A stretch of DNA of 64,000 bases from Akkermansiaceae bacterium (GTDB lineage: Bacteria; Verrucomicrobiota; Verrucomicrobiia; Verrucomicrobiales; Akkermansiaceae), in the NCBI GenBank assembly GCA_051251915.1, contig JBPOGF010000004.1:43188-107187 (forward strand). The letters are read 5' to 3'. The translations under genes were made by a program, and so were the position numbers. The notes under the pieces were generated by a model. That model was not told where the DNA came from. It was given only the letters and a program-made list of their open reading frames with translations, and made no database searches. Positions 158 through 16,315 of the stretch are shown one piece after another; positions within the stretch are counted from its first letter, which is position 1; the number at the start of each line of letters is the position of its first letter.

Positions 158-2878
158 TTAGTTTGCTACGATGTTTACTAGCTTGCCTGGGATGACGATT
201 ACTTTTCGGACGGTGTTGCCGGTTGTGTATTGTTTGACGTTTTCGTCTGCTAGGGCGAGGGCTTCCATGTCTTCTTTGGAGATGTCTTTGGCTACTGTGA
301 GTTTTGCTCTTAGCTTGCCGTTTACTTGGATGACGACGGTGACTTCTGATTCGATGAGGAATTCTTCGTTGAATGACGGCCATGCTCGGTCACTGAGGAT
401 TCTGCCGGCTGAGCATTTTGCTGATGGGCAGGCTTCTCCTAGGTGTTGGTGGATTTCCTCGGTGATGTGTGGGGCGAATGGGTTGAGGCATTTTAGGAAG
501 TCACGTAGGAGGATGGCAGGGATTTTGTCTGCTTTGGTGAAGGCGTTAGTGCAGATCATCATTTGTGAGATAGCTGTGTTGAAGCTCATTTTCTCGATGT
601 CTTCGCTTACCTTTTTGATGGTCTCGTGGGTGACTTTGAGGAGTGATTTGTCGGTTGGTTCGTCGTTGGTGATCTTGTCTGAGATGACCCAGACGCCGTC
701 TTCTAGCTGGGTCATGGCGACGCGCCAGACTTTAGCGAGGAAGCGGGATACGCCTTCTACGCCTTTCATTTGCCATGGCTTGACCTGGGTGAGTGGGCCC
801 ATGAACATTTCGTAGAGGCGGAGTGCGTCTGCGCCGTATTGTTCTACGACTGTGTCTGGGTTGACTACGTTATTGAACGATTTCCCCATTTTACGATTGA
901 TGGGTTCTAGGATTATCCCAGTCTCCTTTTCTGACACTTGCTTATCATCAATGATTAGATTTTCTTCTTCAACTTTATGACCTTTATATTCTCTGTCAGT
1001 TCTACGGTCCTTAGCTGATACAACGTTATTATTTTCATCAGTATAATAGAAGTATTCGGTTTCGCCTAGGATGAGGCCTTGGTTGACGAGTTTTTTGAAT
1101 GGCTCGTTGGTGGTGAGGTGTCCGAGGTCGAACATTACTTTGTGCCAGAAGCGGGCGTAGAGGAGGTGGAGGACGGCGTGTTCTGTACCGCCTACGTAGA
1201 GGTCTACGGTGGCGTCATCGCTGCTCCAGTATTGTTCTGCTTCTTTGGAGATGAAGCGGTCAGAGTTTTTAGGGTCGCAGTAGCGGAGGTAGTACCAGCA
1301 TGAGCCTGCCCATTGGGGCATGGTGTTGGTTTCGCGTTCTGCGGTTTCGCTGTATTTGATCCAGTCTGTGGCTTTGACGAGTGGTCCGCGTGGGTCGCCA
1401 GTGGGCTTGAAGTCTTCTAGGTCTGGTTGGAGGAGTGGTAGCTCGCTTTCTGGGATGGTTGAGTGTTGGCCGTTTTCCCAGATGATGGGGAATGGTTCGC
1501 CCCAGTAGCGCTGGCGTGAGAAGAGCCAGTCGCGGAGTTTGAAGTTGGTTTGTGGTTTTCCTTTGTTGTTGTCGATGAGCCATTTGATCATGGCGCGTTT
1601 GGCGTCTTTGGTTTTCATGCCGTCGAGGTGGCCTGAATTGATGGCTTTGCCGTTTCCGGTGTAGCCTTGCCAATTGGTTTTCTCATCGTTTGGCTGGACT
1701 ACTTGGAGGATGGGTAGGTCGAATTTCTGGGCGAATTCGAAGTCACGTTCATCATGACCAGGGACGGCCATGATGGCTCCGGTTCCGTATCCCATCATGA
1801 CGTAGTCAGCGATCCATACTGGGATTTGCTCTCCGTTTACTGGGTTGGTGGCGAATGCTCCTGTGAAGATGCCGGTTTTGTCTTTGTTCATCTCGCCGCG
1901 CTCCATGTCTGACTTGGTGGCGCAGGTTTTGATGTAGGCTTGGACGGCTTCTTTTTGTTCTGAGCTAGTGATGTCTGACACTAGTGCGTGCTCGGGTGCT
2001 AGCACCATGTATGTTGCGCCGAAGAGGGTGTCTGGGCGGGTTGTAAACACGGTGATTTCGTTTCCTTGGATATCAAAACTTACCTCTGCGCCGATGGATT
2101 TTCCGATCCAGTTGGTTTGAAGGAGTTTGATGGATTCTGGCCAGTCGAGTGGGCCTAGGTCATCGATGAGGCGTTGTGAGTATTTGGTGATGCGGAGCAT
2201 CCATTGTTTGAGTGGGCGGCGCTCTACTGTGTGGCCTTTGGCTTTCCATTCTTCGACTTCTTCGTTGGCGAGGACGGTGCCTAGGTCTGGTGACCAGTTG
2301 ACGGGTGCTTCAGAGATGAAGGCGAGGCGCTCTTCTTCCATTTGCTCGCGGGTGTAGCCTTTTGCTTCGAGTTCGGAGATGGGTTTGGCTTTTTGGTCTT
2401 GTTCGCAGAAGTATGAGTTGTAGAGCTGGATGAAGATCCACTGGGTCCACTTCATGTATTCTGGGTCAGTGGTGTTGATTTCTCTGTCCCAGTCGTAGCC
2501 GAATCCGAGGGATTTTAGTTGGCGGCGGAAGTTGTCTAGATTTTGTTCGGTGGTGACGCGTGGGTGCTGGCCGGTTTTGATGGCGTATTGCTCAGCGGGG
2601 AGTCCGAAGGCGTCCCAGCCCATGGGGTGGAGGACGTTGTGGCCGTTCATGCGCTTGTAGCGGCCGAGGATATCTGTGGCTGTGTAGCCTTCTGGGTGAC
2701 CTACGTGGAGGCCTGCTCCGGATGGGTAGGGGAACATGTCTAGGACGAAGTACTTTGGTTTTGAAGCGTCAAAGTCAGGTTCTCCTGGGTTGGCTACTGA
2801 GAAGGTTTTGTTGTCTTCCCAGTGTGCTTGCCACTTAGGTTCAAAGGTGTCGAATGGAAAAGCTGGTGTAGGTTTCAT
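158..2878 (-). CDS. leuS: Leucine--tRNA ligase
   Basis: 906 aa; [14 protein letters not shown] (HIGH), CP1 editing motif [26 protein letters not shown] (KMSKS variant). Confidence 0.98.
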
Positions 2879-11970: not shown

Positions 11971-12375
11971 ATGCTTCAACTAGAAATCGTAACTCCAGAG
12001 AAGAAAATCTTCTCAGACACAGTCACTGACGTTTACCTACCAGGTGCGGATGGTGAGATGGGTGTGCTTGAATTGCACGCAGCTCTCGTCACTGCACTTC
12101 AACCAGGCGAGCTACGCTATGAGAAAGACGGACAAGTTCAAGAGCTAGCGATTGGTTCAGGATTTGCAGAGGTCACTCAGGAAAAGGTATCAGTCCTCAC
12201 AGACTCAGCCTATGGCGAAGACGACATTGATGAAGCAGCAGAAGAGGCAGCTATGAAGCGTGCAGAAGAGAAGCTAGCTAAAGTATCTGATGAAGATGCT
12301 GAAGAAGCGGCTCATCTAGAAACACTCATTGCTACTAATGCAGCAAGACTTCTTCTTAAGCGTAAGAAGAGGTAG
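11971..12375 (+). CDS. atpC: F0F1 ATP synthase subunit epsilon
   Basis: LEIVTPEK, PGADGEMGVLELHA, GFAEV. Confidence 0.96.
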   Translation: MLQLEIVTPEKKIFSDTVTDVYLPGADGEMGVLELHAALVTALQPGELRYEKDGQVQELAIGSGFAEVTQEKVSVLTDSAYGEDDIDEAAEEAAMKRAEEKLAKVSDEDAEEAAHLETLIATNAARLLLKRKKR

Positions 12376-12440
12376 GGCGAAGCCCTTGTCATTGGTCCAT
12401 TGGCAATCGTTAATGGTCTGATAAGATGAAACATTTATAG

Positions 12441-12472
12441 CCCTCAGCAAGGAAACTTGCTGAGGGTTTTTT
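12441..12472 (+). terminator. Intrinsic terminator of the atp operon
   Basis: CCCTCAGCAAG-gaaa-CTTGCTGAGGG followed by TTTTTT. Confidence 0.9.
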
Positions 12473-12517
12473 AGTCTTGTTCAAATATTGAACGAAACCT
12501 AGAGCTATTATGGCAGT

Positions 12518-13846
12518 TTACTGTTGGAGTAATTTTCCTAGATCGGTAGAAGGGTGAAATACGAAGGTATTTCCGTCTTTTTCTTTGGTCAGTAAACCTG
12601 CAGATGCTAATTTTAGTAAATCAGTTCTAGCTGTTTGGTTAGTGATACCATGGCTAGTTTGGTGTGATGCTATGGTGTAAAGTGCATGGCTATTTCTAAC
12701 AGCATGACTTAGAAGCGCTTTCTGTCTGTGATTCCACTTCCTCATCCCTATAAGAGACGTTGATAATTCTAACTGTTGGCGTTGCTTCCTACTGATGTAT
12801 TCGTGTAATGAAGTTACGGATTTATCCAATGTTTCTAGCTGATGGATGATGAAGTAATTTAGATCATTTTCATCAGTTTCGGTGTATAAAAATGCTCTGT
12901 AATACTGGATTGGAGCTTTGAGTAATTCAGATGAAAGCGAGATGTATTCCATCATCCAGTAGCCATGCTTTAGCATACACCAATAAAATAGAGCTCTAGC
13001 GGTTCTTCCATTTCCGTCGTAGAATGGGTGTTCATAAGCTAGCCAAAAATGTAAGATGATAGATCTAATTATAGGGTGTAAGTAACCTTGCATCTCTGGT
13101 GCATTTGCAAAAGCACATAGTTTTTCCATCCTGTCAGGAAGTAGGTCTGCATCTGGAGGAGAGTGCATGATTTCATTAGTTGTTTGATCAACTACTTGGA
13201 TATCCTCGGAAGCAAAGCGATATCTTCCTGAGGCATCTTCTTTAGTCAAAGTGTCTTTGGTCATCAACCGATGAATTTCTAGTATGAGATCTTGCGATAA
13301 TTCTCGATCCTTTAGTTCATGGATTTTCTTCATTGTTAGGAAGTTATTTAGAATCATCTGCTCATCTTTATTCTTTGGCTTAGATTTTCTTCTTAACATT
13401 TCCCCTGCTATTTCTCTAGTTACTGAGGCTCCTTCTAGCTGTGATGATGTTATGGATTCTTCAATAAGTGAGGATATATAGTAACGTTTTGAGTCGATAT
13501 CTACACTATCTGGCTTGTTGTTAGTGCTGAGGGTTCCTCCACATTTCTTATCCAGTTGATGAATAAGTTCAAACATGTGCTGTGTCAGGTAGAAGACAAA
13601 AGGATTATCGTTAGAGTCTTTAAACGGGAGAAGTTGGTAACGACTATTCCTGTGAAACTTAAGAACTGTCCACCAGTCTTCGGAAGACCAATTTTTAGGT
13701 CTATTACGGTATCTTAGTTTATCCCAATGTAGATATTTTTGCGAATCAGGAAGAGCATCAATGGGGGTATTGATATCAGAGCCAAGTTTATTCAGCGTGT
13801 TGGCTAAGAGAGTCTTCCAGTCAGGTGGTGTTTTTGGGTATTTCAT
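12518..13846 (-). CDS. Fic-family protein with internal inhibitory motif and C-terminal wHTH
   Basis: Canonical HPFYDGNGRTAR; upstream SSQLEG matches the (S/T)xxxE(G/N) inhibitory motif; C-terminal GITNQTARTDLLKLASAGLL is HTH-like. Visibly AT-richer than its neighbours. Confidence 0.92.
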   Translation of the reverse strand: MKYPKTPPDWKTLLANTLNKLGSDINTPIDALPDSQKYLHWDKLRYRNRPKNWSSEDWWTVLKFHRNSRYQLLPFKDSNDNPFVFYLTQHMFELIHQLDKKCGGTLSTNNKPDSVDIDSKRYYISSLIEESITSSQLEGASVTREIAGEMLRRKSKPKNKDEQMILNNFLTMKKIHELKDRELSQDLILEIHRLMTKDTLTKEDASGRYRFASEDIQVVDQTTNEIMHSPPDADLLPDRMEKLCAFANAPEMQGYLHPIIRSIILHFWLAYEHPFYDGNGRTARALFYWCMLKHGYWMMEYISLSSELLKAPIQYYRAFLYTETDENDLNYFIIHQLETLDKSVTSLHEYISRKQRQQLELSTSLIGMRKWNHRQKALLSHAVRNSHALYTIASHQTSHGITNQTARTDLLKLASAGLLTKEKDGNTFVFHPSTDLGKLLQQ

Positions 13847-13999
13847 TTCCTAATTTAGTAGTAATTAGGAGTAAATTAGCAGTTTAGCTATTTGCAGGCA
13901 AGCATTTCCTAATTTAGTAGTAATTAGGAGTAAATTAGTAGTTGGTTCGGCAGATGCAGATTACTACTAATTTAGTATTAATTAGGAGGTAATTAGGAG
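13844..13999. repeat. Three direct repeats (about 36 bp, period 58-59), each with a CCTAATT-N7-AATTAGG palindrome
   Basis: CATTTCCTAATTTAGTAGTAATTAGGAGTAAATTAG is identical at 13844 and 13903, with a degenerate copy from about 13961. It sits directly upstream of the Fic start codon. Confidence 0.9.
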
Positions 14000-14041
14000 T
14001 TGTTCTAGATTATGCTGCTATTACTAGGCTAGCAAAACGAT

Positions 14042-16315
14042 CTAAACTATTTGTAACTCGTAGTCTTTGGTGAGTTGTAGGTGGAGGGTGGTGTCTTTTA
14101 GGGTGGGGTGGGTTACTAGGTGTTGGGAGAGTGAGGTGGTGATGAAGTGGTCTATCTTGCGCTGTAGTGGACGTGCTCCGTATTTGGGGTCGAAGCCTTC
14201 TTTTGCGAGGTGGGTGATGAGGTCTTGGCTGTAGGTGAGGCTGATGTTGCGGTCACGGAGTCCTTCGCGTTGGTTGAGTTCTGTTAGTTCTTTTCTCGCT
14301 ATTTTCTCTATGAGTGGTTGGTCTAGTGCGTTGAAGTAGATGACTTGGTCTAGACGATTGAAGAATTCTGGGCGGAAGAATTTTTTGACTACTGATGTGT
14401 CAACGCTGGTAGATGGGCTATTGGCTTCATTGCCAAATCCGATGTTGTTAGCGAGACCAGCACCTAGGTTAGAGGTCATGATGATGATGGTGCTGTTGAA
14501 GTAGGTGCGGCGTCCGAAGGAGTCTGTTAGGCGCCCTTCGTCGAAGACATTGAGTAGGATGTCGAATACTTCATCGGCAGCTTTTTCAACTTCGTCTAGT
14601 AGTAGTATGGTGAATGGATTTGAGCGGATCTTGCGGATCATTTCTGATGGCTTGCCGCGTAGCTGGGGGTGACCTAGTAGTCTGGTGGCTGCATCGTAGC
14701 CGGCGTATTCGCTCATGTCTAAGCGGATCAAGCGGTCTTTTTCTACTTTTCCTGAGAAGAGCAGATTTCCGAGTGCTCGGACGATAGCTGTCTTTCCTAC
14801 GCCAGTAGGTCCGCAGCAGAGGAAGACACCTAGTGGGCGAGATGGATCATTCATGCCAGCTTTGAAGCGTGAGAGCATGTTGGAGATGACGTTGACTACG
14901 GGTTCTTGACCTAGGACTTGGTTGTTGAGTGTTTGGCGGATTTCTGAGGGCGCTAGGCTTAGCTCGTCATTGAGAAATTCTAGCGGGAGTCCAGTATGCT
15001 TGCTAAAGGTGAGCCAGACTAGATCTGTATCTACTGTGGAGCTGTTAGAGCGCTGGGATTCTTCTTTGAGCCCATCCATGAAATGCATGACCTTGCCGGG
15101 GAAGGAGTCATAGGGTTGGAAGCGTTTAAAGAGTTGGTGGACTATGTCTAGGGCTTCTGGGGCGAAGCTGACTTTGTCTTGCTGGAGTGCTGCGTCTGCG
15201 TAGCGTGCTAGGATTCTTTTGGTTTGTTCTTCAGTGAAGGTTGGGAGTTGGAGCACTTGGAATTGATCGATGAGTCCGGGGAGTAGTCGGTCACAGGCTT
15301 CTAGTTCTTCTGGTGTGGCTTCTACTACAATGCGGAGTTCTTGATTCTGAATGTAGGGGAGCATGAAGGCAGCAATACTGGACTCTGCTGTTTGGCCTCC
15401 TAGTTTGAGCAGCTCTTGGAGGTTTTCTATGAATAGGGTTCCTTGGAAGTTTGCGAGGTCTGCTACGGCATACTCGAAACGTTCTTCCCACTGACCTAGG
15501 TAGCGCATTCCTGAGATGATGCGTCCTGCGTTGGTGGTCCAGAAGAGTTGTTTTTTCTTGCTGTGTTTACTTTTATTCTTCTGTTGTTTGAGCTCTGCAC
15601 GTCTTGCGGCTTCTGTCAAAAGTGATGTTTTTCCACTTCCTGTATTTCCTACGAGAAGGATGCTGTTAGATTCTGCTGAGAGCATGGTTTCTAGCCAGTG
15701 CATTTCATGGTCTCGTTCCCAGGTTCGCTTGGTTTTCTGTGATGTGGTTTTGCTGATGTGGTCGGCAAATTGAGCGAGGCTTTTGACGCAGTCTGTGTCT
15801 TCGTAATGTGAGGTGGATAGTTCTTTGAAGGTGGTGATTATTTCATGGAGTTCAATATGGCTGGGTGGGAGATAGCGGGAGAGTTCTTGGGGGCTTAGAC
15901 CTTGGGCGAAGGATCTTACGTAATGGGTAGCGAGTTCTTCAAATCCTTTTTCATCGTGGTATTCGAAGCTGAGATCCATAGTGGGGATGAAGGCGGTGGG
16001 GAGTCCGCTGTCACGCTCTCCTAGTATGCAGGGGAGGTTGAGCAGGGTGGAGTCTTTGCTAGCATAGGTGCGGCGGTTTTCTTGGTATTCCGCGATGACT
16101 TTTACTTTTAGCTGGGTGAGTCTAGGCTTGAGGAAGTCGCCTTCTGGTAAGAAGTCATTTTTATGGGCGTATTGGAGGTAATCTTTGATTTGCTGTAATG
16201 CTTGTTTCCGTGATTTAGAAACAGCAATTACCTCAGAGTCATCTAGCAGGCATGCGGTGTGCAAGCCATTGTGATCTTGCCAAATAGCGGCTTGGTGTCG
16301 TTCTACTTTAGCCAT
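14042..16315 (-). CDS. ClpA/B-like double AAA+ ATPase (paralogue 3, no C-terminal extension)
   Basis: D1 GNTGSGKT; D2 GPTGVGKT, RLDMSEY, LLLDEVEKA, FRPEFFNRLD, YGARPLQR; NNIGF loop. Confidence 0.9.
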   Translation of the reverse strand: MAKVERHQAAIWQDHNGLHTACLLDDSEVIAVSKSRKQALQQIKDYLQYAHKNDFLPEGDFLKPRLTQLKVKVIAEYQENRRTYASKDSTLLNLPCILGERDSGLPTAFIPTMDLSFEYHDEKGFEELATHYVRSFAQGLSPQELSRYLPPSHIELHEIITTFKELSTSHYEDTDCVKSLAQFADHISKTTSQKTKRTWERDHEMHWLETMLSAESNSILLVGNTGSGKTSLLTEAARRAELKQQKNKSKHSKKKQLFWTTNAGRIISGMRYLGQWEERFEYAVADLANFQGTLFIENLQELLKLGGQTAESSIAAFMLPYIQNQELRIVVEATPEELEACDRLLPGLIDQFQVLQLPTFTEEQTKRILARYADAALQQDKVSFAPEALDIVHQLFKRFQPYDSFPGKVMHFMDGLKEESQRSNSSTVDTDLVWLTFSKHTGLPLEFLNDELSLAPSEIRQTLNNQVLGQEPVVNVISNMLSRFKAGMNDPSRPLGVFLCCGPTGVGKTAIVRALGNLLFSGKVEKDRLIRLDMSEYAGYDAATRLLGHPQLRGKPSEMIRKIRSNPFTILLLDEVEKAADEVFDILLNVFDEGRLTDSFGRRTYFNSTIIIMTSNLGAGLANNIGFGNEANSPSTSVDTSVVKKFFRPEFFNRLDQVIYFNALDQPLIEKIARKELTELNQREGLRDRNISLTYSQDLITHLAKEGFDPKYGARPLQRKIDHFITTSLSQHLVTHPTLKDTTLHLQLTKDYELQIV

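Follow-up and report, generated by a model that had tools for sequence, protein, structure and literature searches.

Tandem Palindromes Upstream of a SoFic-Type Fic Gene of an Akkermansiaceae Bacterium as Candidate Operators of the Encoded Protein

Introduction

Directly upstream of a Fic gene of an Akkermansiaceae bacterium, a short sequence occurs three times, and each copy is built around a palindrome. Which function do these palindromes have, and which molecule, if any, recognizes them? The locus is part of a stretch of 64,000 nt that was analysed as a whole and is referred to as the window. In the initial annotation of this stretch the palindromes were proposed to be tandem operators for the winged helix-turn-helix (wHTH) domain of the Fic protein itself, with a processed small-RNA array similar to type III antitoxins or a mini CRISPR-like array as alternatives. 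Here, these readings are weighed against the structure of the repeats, the distribution of the palindrome within the genome, and its occurrence and variation in related Fic loci.

Structure of the Repeat Array

The features of the locus are compiled in Table 1. A repeat search reproduced the position and identity of the 36-bp identical repeats described at 13844 and 13903 (41 bp with one mismatch): the first 36 nt of copies 1 and 2 are the same, the overall identity is 98%, and the sole mismatch, C/T, is situated at repeat position 37. The degenerate third copy, which had been placed from about 13961, was recovered as well. Start-to-start distances of the three repeats amount to 59 and 58 nt. 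With a repeat length of 41 nt, the unique spacers comprise 18 and 17 nt; with 36 nt, they comprise 23 and 22 nt, in agreement with the 22–23 bp given originally.

The palindrome CCTAATT-N7-AATTAGG had been assigned to every copy. This holds exactly for copies 1 and 2, but copy 3 reads ACTAATT-N7-AATTAGG with one mismatch and contains an overlapping second register in addition. Four matches to the palindrome were found in the window versus 0.13 expected, and none of 100 shuffles gave four. All three palindromes are located at most 141 nt from the Fic ATG. The proximal candidate operator, O1, has the same 10-7-10 layout as the proximal sites of the orthologues, stops 1 nt short of the Fic ATG, and includes an AGGA ribosome-binding motif. 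Read on the minus strand, AGGAAATG forms the end of copy 1 as well as of copy 2. As noted at the outset, copy 1 thereby provides the start codon of the Fic gene (13846-13844), which agrees with the conserved MKxPxTPP N-terminus of the orthologues, and the duplicated ATG of copy 2 opens a small upstream ORF (uORF), MLACK*; both are read directly in the sequence.

Table 1. Positions of the Fic gene, its predicted protein features, and the upstream repeats and candidate sites within the window.
Feature	Position	Strand	Length or sequence	Remarks
Fic gene	12518-13846	-	442 aa	SoFic-type class II Fic with predicted C-terminal winged helix
Predicted winged helix-turn-helix	12551-12730	-		residues 373-432
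Predicted recognition helix	~12602-12640	-		residues 403-415
Fic catalytic motif	12995-13030	-	HPFYDGNGRTAR	residues 273-284, intact
Inhibitory-helix motif	13430-13450	-	TSSQLEG	residues 133-139, class II, conserved in the family
Repeat copy 1	13844-13884		41 nt	contains O1, the extra half-site, and the Fic start codon
Repeat copy 2	13903-13943		41 nt	40/41 positions same as copy 1
Repeat copy 3	13961-14001			degenerate, 78% identity
Candidate operator O1 (proximal)	13848-13870		TCCTAATT-N7-AATTAGGA	exact
Candidate operator O2 (middle)	13907-13929		same palindrome as O1	59 bp upstream of O1
Candidate operator O3 (distal, degenerate)	13965-13998		TACTAATT-N7-AATTAGGA	1 mismatch; second register 13976-13998, 2 mismatches
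Extra direct half-site	13873-13880	-	GCTAATTT	11 bp upstream of the O1 left arm, in gene orientation
O2 counterpart of the extra half-site	13932-13939		ACTAATTT
uORF	13888-13905	-	MLACK*	opened by the duplicated ATG of copy 2
Inferred promoter	13873-13901	-	-35 TTGCCT, 17-nt spacer, -10 TAATTT	-35 at 13901-13896, -10 at 13878-13873; between O2 and O1

The Fic Protein and Its Predicted DNA-Binding Domain

The gene product matches the Pfam Fic domain with an E-value of 4.9e-18 and the PADLOC SoFic model (PDLC03963) with 1.1e-42 over residues 126-434, covering 300 of the 361 profile positions. According to the PADLOC profile, the protein would thus belong to the SoFic-type single-gene anti-phage defence family, with a putative protective role. 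With 51 bits, the score for the NCBIfam SoFic equivalog falls far short of the cut-off of 550, and the protein therefore represents a distinct subfamily. The catalytic motif fits HxFx(D/E)GNGRxxR, the columns of which are invariant over 78 sequences, and the inhibitory helix follows the pattern (S/T)xxxE(G/N) as quoted for CccR (PMC9755527) and CbFic2 (PMC10628234).

An AF2 model calculated from the 78 sequences (pLDDT 86.6, pTM 0.84) matches, over its whole length, SoFic (3zcn, 3eqx), 7xux, 7cb8, and 8cil across 360-415 alignment columns. At its C-terminus the helices H373-384, H392-399, and H403-415 are followed by a beta hairpin (residues 419-432; strands E419-424 and E427-432). HTH_DeoR and SoFic-like_C matches to residues 399-430 are sub-threshold. 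The first ~120 residues form an extra N-terminal region without a Pfam match, and a Pfam search to E 5 with the N-terminal 179 aa returned no family. The Fic gene has a GC content of 38% versus 47-50% in the neighboring genes, which fits an acquired accessory or defence gene.

Confinement to the Fic Locus and History of the Three Copies

In the whole 4.0-Mb assembly, which is 98% complete, TCCTAATT-N7-AATTAGGA with up to two mismatches is found solely at the Fic locus. Six matches with three mismatches occur elsewhere in the genome, compared to 14 for a reversed control pattern, and thus represent background. Since the palindrome is confined to this locus, it is a private element of it, and a reading as dispersed repeat is ruled out.

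A Fic pseudogene of 70% identity in a genome of the same genus (G011) carries the exact 21-mer palindrome at its ATG, however in a single copy. In this syntenic locus, the one site lies within a 75-nt intergenic region, and the pseudogene is placed between atpC and a gene which we take to be serS. No Clp genes are situated in between. Since pseudogene and operator occur there without the Clp trio, a functional tie to the upstream Clp-like genes of the window is ruled out. In a further genome (G018), a Fic remnant of 53 aa still has a palindrome, with 18-nt arms.

Copies 1 and 2 are nearly identical down to the copied ATG, which points to a recent duplication of ~59 bp that added a site. The added site could either tighten repression or be neutral. 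The simplest history suggested by the sequence looks like a tandem duplication of a ~59-bp unit holding operator and start codon. The interval between copies 1 and 2 has no clear similarity to the next interval; the spacers have diverged while the operator cores are identical. The MLACK* uORF is best read as a by-product of this duplication, in which the operator was copied together with the start codon, and O3 as an additional upstream site.

Sites Upstream of Related Fic Genes

One genome per species was scanned for relatives of the Fic protein. At least 587 were confirmed, of which the best 80 were examined; these belong to the Verrucomicrobiota, Planctomycetota, Latescibacterota, Hydrogenedentota, Kiritimatiellia, Spirochaetia, and Gammaproteobacteria. 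All intact orthologues with 45-53% identity from other families of the same order have CTAATT-type palindromes before the ATG. A layout of 10-nt half-site, 7-nt spacer, and inverted half-site is nearly universal in the upstream regions examined. Considering 82 upstream regions from Verrucomicrobiota, Planctomycetota, Latescibacterota, Gammaproteobacteria, and further groups, the best inverted-repeat arm has a mean length of 10.3 nt versus 5.6 nt in shuffles.

In the 75 loci with an assignable half-site, the number of 10-7-10 sites is two in 50, one in 22, and three in three loci. Looking upstream of homologous genes had been suggested together with the initial annotation, and similar palindromes are indeed present there, 53 of the 75 loci having two or three. 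With its three sites, the window is among the three unusual loci. Site-to-site spacings have modes at 47-49 and 59-61 bp, two classes roughly one turn of the helix apart. Of 85 palindromic sites, 38 are preceded by a direct copy of their half-site at a distance of 11 bp from the left arm. The half-site varies by lineage, with TCCTAATT, TACTAATT, TGCTAATT, TTCTAATT, TATCAATT, TACCAATT, and others, but within a locus both arms and both sites change together.

A conserved partner or antitoxin gene is ruled out by a comparison of the neighboring genes of 78 loci, in which no family was common to more than 13 loci and the largest families reached 12-13. These largest sets stem from related planctomycete contigs, where the Fic gene has a divergent uvrA-like gene on one side and an endonuclease V gene on the other. 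In the syntenic loci the latter starts 9 nt downstream of the Fic gene; both neighbors are housekeeping genes. The Fic gene is hence the sole gene that travels with the sites, through unrelated neighborhoods and across phyla.

Position of the Sites Relative to the Promoter

A strong sigma-70 match was observed in 18 loci, mostly of planctomycetes. Here, the first six bases of the proximal site constitute the -10 box, which reads TATACT in 17 loci and TATATT in one; in two more loci the -10 box is one base off the start of the proximal site. A TTGACA-like -35 box follows immediately on the distal site, 16-18 nt upstream of the -10 box. The sites of planctomycete-type loci thus flank a near-consensus promoter, which is a classical repressor layout.

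In case of the window, a promoter and terminator scan of positions 13847-14041 returned neither a consensus promoter nor a terminator. By analogy with the orthologous loci we infer a promoter between O2 and O1, which scores 7 out of 12 against the consensus. If this position is right, the transcript would start within the left arm of O1, and the MLACK uORF would not be transcribed from this promoter. There is no terminator between the upstream Clp-like gene and the Fic gene, so read-through transcription could also feed the latter.

Covariation of Half-Site and Recognition Helix

Covariation between the half-site and the protein is predicted for a repressor that co-evolves with its own operator, and would be explained neither by an RNA element nor by a foreign regulator. 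The loci were classed by the three bases preceding the AA of the half-site, and every protein column was scored by mutual information with these classes. The segment SxQTARTDLxxL had been marked as likely recognition helix before scoring. Columns 408, 402, 404, and 403 obtained ranks 1, 2, 3, and 5 of 440. If clade labels are used instead of operator labels, the same four columns drop to ranks between 44 and 328. Within-clade permutation of the operator labels, adopted as control in place of a small sign test, returned columns 404, 403, 402, and 408 as the top four, with z-scores of 13.6, 7.9, 7.8, and 7.4, respectively. The association of half-site and recognition helix therefore survives the control for relatedness. 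In the AF2 model the four columns map to the N-terminus of the predicted helix H403-415, and the N-terminus of the recognition helix is where HTH proteins usually read bases.

CTAA half-sites occur together with Q404 in 55 of 65 loci. Where C replaces this T (10 loci), residue 404 is D, A, E, N, or G, and never Q (0/10). On a tree built from residues 1-360 only, thus leaving out the wHTH, the CCAA class has three separate origins, each accompanied by a change from Q to D; for one of these, the sister group (99% support) still has CTAA and Q. The TCAA class originated at least twice, in each case with the helix AYATARAD. An independent-pairs sign test gave 3-4 pairs to 0, all in the predicted direction (p = 0.125), and is underpowered with only four pairs. 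The sequences suggest a recognition rule in which residue 404 would be Q for CTAA, D or E for CCAA, and A for TCAA. A DNA specificity of this Fic subfamily is strongly implied by the covariation.

Alternative Explanations

The palindromes might act mainly as RNA, with a hairpin in the 5'-UTR that sequesters the AGGA motif and throttles translation, independent of any protein on the DNA. Copy 1 does fold at -7 kcal/mol (z = -4.3), its 3' arm containing AGGA, and AATTAGGAG, the right arm in verrucomicrobial orthologues, is at the same time a Shine-Dalgarno sequence. However, in loci with a clear promoter the distal sites share the sequence of the proximal sites although they are located upstream of the -35 box and thus would not be transcribed, and with the -10 box inferred for the window the transcript would begin inside the left arm. 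Mismatches between the arms lack a G-U bias (27 sense-compatible, 23 antisense, and 74 other), and an RNA element does not account for the covariation with the recognition helix, so that we consider it improbable as the principal function, although the hairpin may make some contribution at the RNA level. Binding of a host regulator other than Fic appears slightly less probable still: nothing specific speaks in its favor, the site is unique in the genome, which leaves such a regulator without a regulon, no other gene accompanies the site on its way with Fic through unrelated neighborhoods and phyla, and the half-site changes along with the recognition helix of Fic itself. An equally low probability is given to a neutral local duplication without function. 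The match between copies 1 and 2 (40/41 positions, start codon included) does point to a recent duplication, and as three sites are present in only three of 75 loci, the extra copy could be neutral; but two sites with constrained spacing (47-49 or 59-61 bp) are the norm of the family across phyla, and the operator cores have remained identical although the spacers diverged.

An arrangement of 36-41-nt repeats around unique sequence, placed ahead of a toxin-like gene, also resembles a processed small-RNA array of the type III antitoxin kind or a mini CRISPR array, as had been proposed initially. Neither proposal stood up, and their joint probability is negligible. There are only three repeats, which are non-contiguous and of which the third is degenerate, with intervals of 17-23 nt, and in the orthologues the sites occupy fixed positions relative to promoter and ATG. 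A ToxIN-like type III toxin-antitoxin system, in which a processed antitoxin RNA stems from contiguous tandem repeats ahead of a ToxN-type endoribonuclease gene, is ruled out, since the repeats here are split by unique sequence, the downstream gene encodes a Fic protein and not a ToxN-type RNase, and an Rfam search (E up to 1) of positions 12300-14300 gave no match in the repeat array, the four matches outside the repeats being at chance level. In a CRISPR array one would expect several repeats of identical sequence, separated by spacers of roughly 26-72 nt, along with cas genes in the same genome. With two and a half repeats and intervals of 17-23 nt, no Cas1 found in a search of the 98%-complete genome, and no match of the intergenic region in a BLAST search against phages, for which the 17-23-nt intervals are too short to serve as spacer queries, this reading is ruled out as well.

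Proposed Mode of Action

With a probability of roughly 85%, the three palindromes are self-operators that would be bound by the wHTH of the downstream Fic protein for autorepression. The proposal of tandem operators for autoregulation made in the initial annotation is supported by the comparative evidence, i.e., orthologous sites of the same geometry, uniqueness in the genome, the lack of a conserved partner, covariation with the recognition helix, and overlap with the promoter, and experimental precedent is given by CccR and SoFic. Physical binding, the sign of regulation, and the stoichiometry are putative. The individual site consists of the half-site xxTCCTAATT (10 nt) and its inverted counterpart with 7 nt between them, accompanied by a direct half-site one helical turn upstream. 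At O1, bound Fic would sit over the transcription start as well as the ribosome-binding region, and at O2 it would flank the -35 box. Such negative feedback would keep transcription of the potentially toxic AMP-transferase low.

It is tempting to speculate that the array serves, in addition, as an allosteric docking platform, which would keep the antitoxin-less Fic protein on the DNA as an oligomer that is inactive or deAMPylating. Active toxin would be set free once this contact is lost, e.g., when phages attack the host DNA or through titration, and the third site of the window would set geometry and capacity of the platform. This addition, for which CbFic2 is the model, is rather unlikely.

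As self-operators, the palindromes would be of wider interest, since operator sequences are known for very few Fic-wHTH proteins. The present analysis provides a base-resolved candidate operator for a large, SoFic-like subfamily that spans several phyla (at least 587 relatives), together with a putative recognition rule at residue 404 that is directly testable. It also supports the view that single-gene toxin or defence cassettes may carry a private control circuit of their own.

Comparison with Known Fic Systems

The closest characterized case of self-repression is CccR of Yersinia pseudotuberculosis, a class II Fic protein with a C-terminal HTH that represses its own promoter, as demonstrated by lacZ fusions, EMSA, footprinting, and ITC; its operator, AGATAATCAT-N26-ATGATAATCT, is located near the -35 and -10 boxes (PMC9755527). 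The protein described here agrees with CccR in its class II inhibitory helix at the N-terminus and in its predicted C-terminal HTH. As with CccR, a single gene encodes it without a separate antitoxin, and inverted repeats are present in its own promoter, which in the window is a candidate promoter. PDB entry 7xux, which from chain length and release date is probably CccR, matches the fold over about 370-390 columns, although the sequence identity with CccR is only about 18%. The operators differ as well: CccR has one pair of 10-nt inverted repeats, 26 bp apart, whereas the sites observed here each have the 10-7-10 arrangement, number two or three at distances of 47-61 bp, and frequently come with a third, direct half-site. 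Furthermore, the present subfamily has the extra N-terminal region of ~120 aa, and while CccR is a T6SS effector, nothing suggests secretion of the Fic protein of the window.

The best structural match, over ~370 columns, is SoFic of Shewanella oneidensis (3eqx, 3zcn), which is reported to bind, as a dimer, to the 100 bp that directly precede its own gene (bioRxiv 10.64898/2026.07.09.737422). The operator sequence of SoFic itself is undefined, whereas base resolution was reached for the candidate sites described here. The toxic Sofic of E. coli is accompanied by AS1, a small antitoxin encoded downstream (PMC12249575), for which the Fic locus of the window has no counterpart. CbFic2 of Coxiella burnetii (PDB 8cil) has the same Fic and wHTH architecture. 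When its HTH binds DNA, this protein is reported to change its oligomeric state and to switch from one activity to the other, AMPylation or deAMPylation (PMC10628234). CbFic2 bound random DNA and has no specific operator known, whereas the covariation argues for specificity in the subfamily described here. Self-repression by a Fic-wHTH protein has thus already been shown for CccR and suggested for SoFic, and the locus does not represent a new type of system; it differs from the known kind in operator geometry, in the number of sites, and in belonging to a distinct subfamily with an N-terminal extension.

Genomic context of the Fic gene

The Fic gene of the window (12518-13846) has a GC content of 38.4%, and its atp and Clp-like neighbours range from 47 to 50%. 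Another species of this genus (locus L011, G011:C337) has a decayed Fic gene, with stop codons and 70% identity, at the corresponding position after atpC. It directly adjoins the next gene, presumably serS-like, and the three Clp-like genes of the window are absent beside it. Due to this absence, the Clp trio and Fic do not constitute a conserved unit.

For the orthologue loci L040, L041, L044, L045, L052, L055, L061, L062, and L086, which all belong to a single group of planctomycete contigs, most of which carry the label Pirellulales, Fic has a divergent uvrA-like gene on one side and an endonuclease V gene on the other. In this group the endonuclease V gene starts 9 nt past the Fic stop codon, a gap which suggests co-transcription of a toxin-like Fic gene with a DNA repair gene.

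In the window, atpC and Fic are convergent, and the 142-nt gap separating them contains a strong terminator that is likely shared by both genes. The uORF MLACK* originated from the start codon copied within repeat 2, the second copy of the 41-nt upstream repeat. This uORF shares bases with the inferred -35 box, which makes its transcription from the Fic promoter improbable.

Features associated with Fic
Feature	Location	Strand	Source
Strong terminator, 13-bp stem	12439-12468		window
Extra N-terminal region, Fic residues 1-120	about 13487-13846		window
uORF MLACK*	13888-13905	-	window
Fic N-terminus remnant, 53 aa, with palindrome	1295-1545		L017 (G018:C5)

Probable operator sites and the N-terminal region of Fic

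In the upstream regions of loci L027-L106, the distance between the two operator sites is bimodal, with classes of 47-49 bp and 59-61 bp. These classes lie approximately one helical turn apart, and in both of them the sites are separated by nearly a half-integral number of turns, which suggests that the sites are constrained in relative orientation.

Fic residues 1-120 form an additional N-terminal region characteristic of this family, for which Pfam yielded no matches, even at E up to 5; its predicted structure contains helices followed by a beta hairpin, with a further helix spanning residues 89-102. Because columns 91, 92, and 102 of this region also rank high for association with operator class (a grouping by half-site bases), the N-terminal region may contact the predicted C-terminal wHTH or DNA.

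In genome G018, the Fic remnant retains a palindrome whose 18-nt arms match perfectly, CCTAATCTATTCCTAATT-N7-AATTAGGAATAGATTAGG. Here, a predicted operator has survived longer than its Fic gene.
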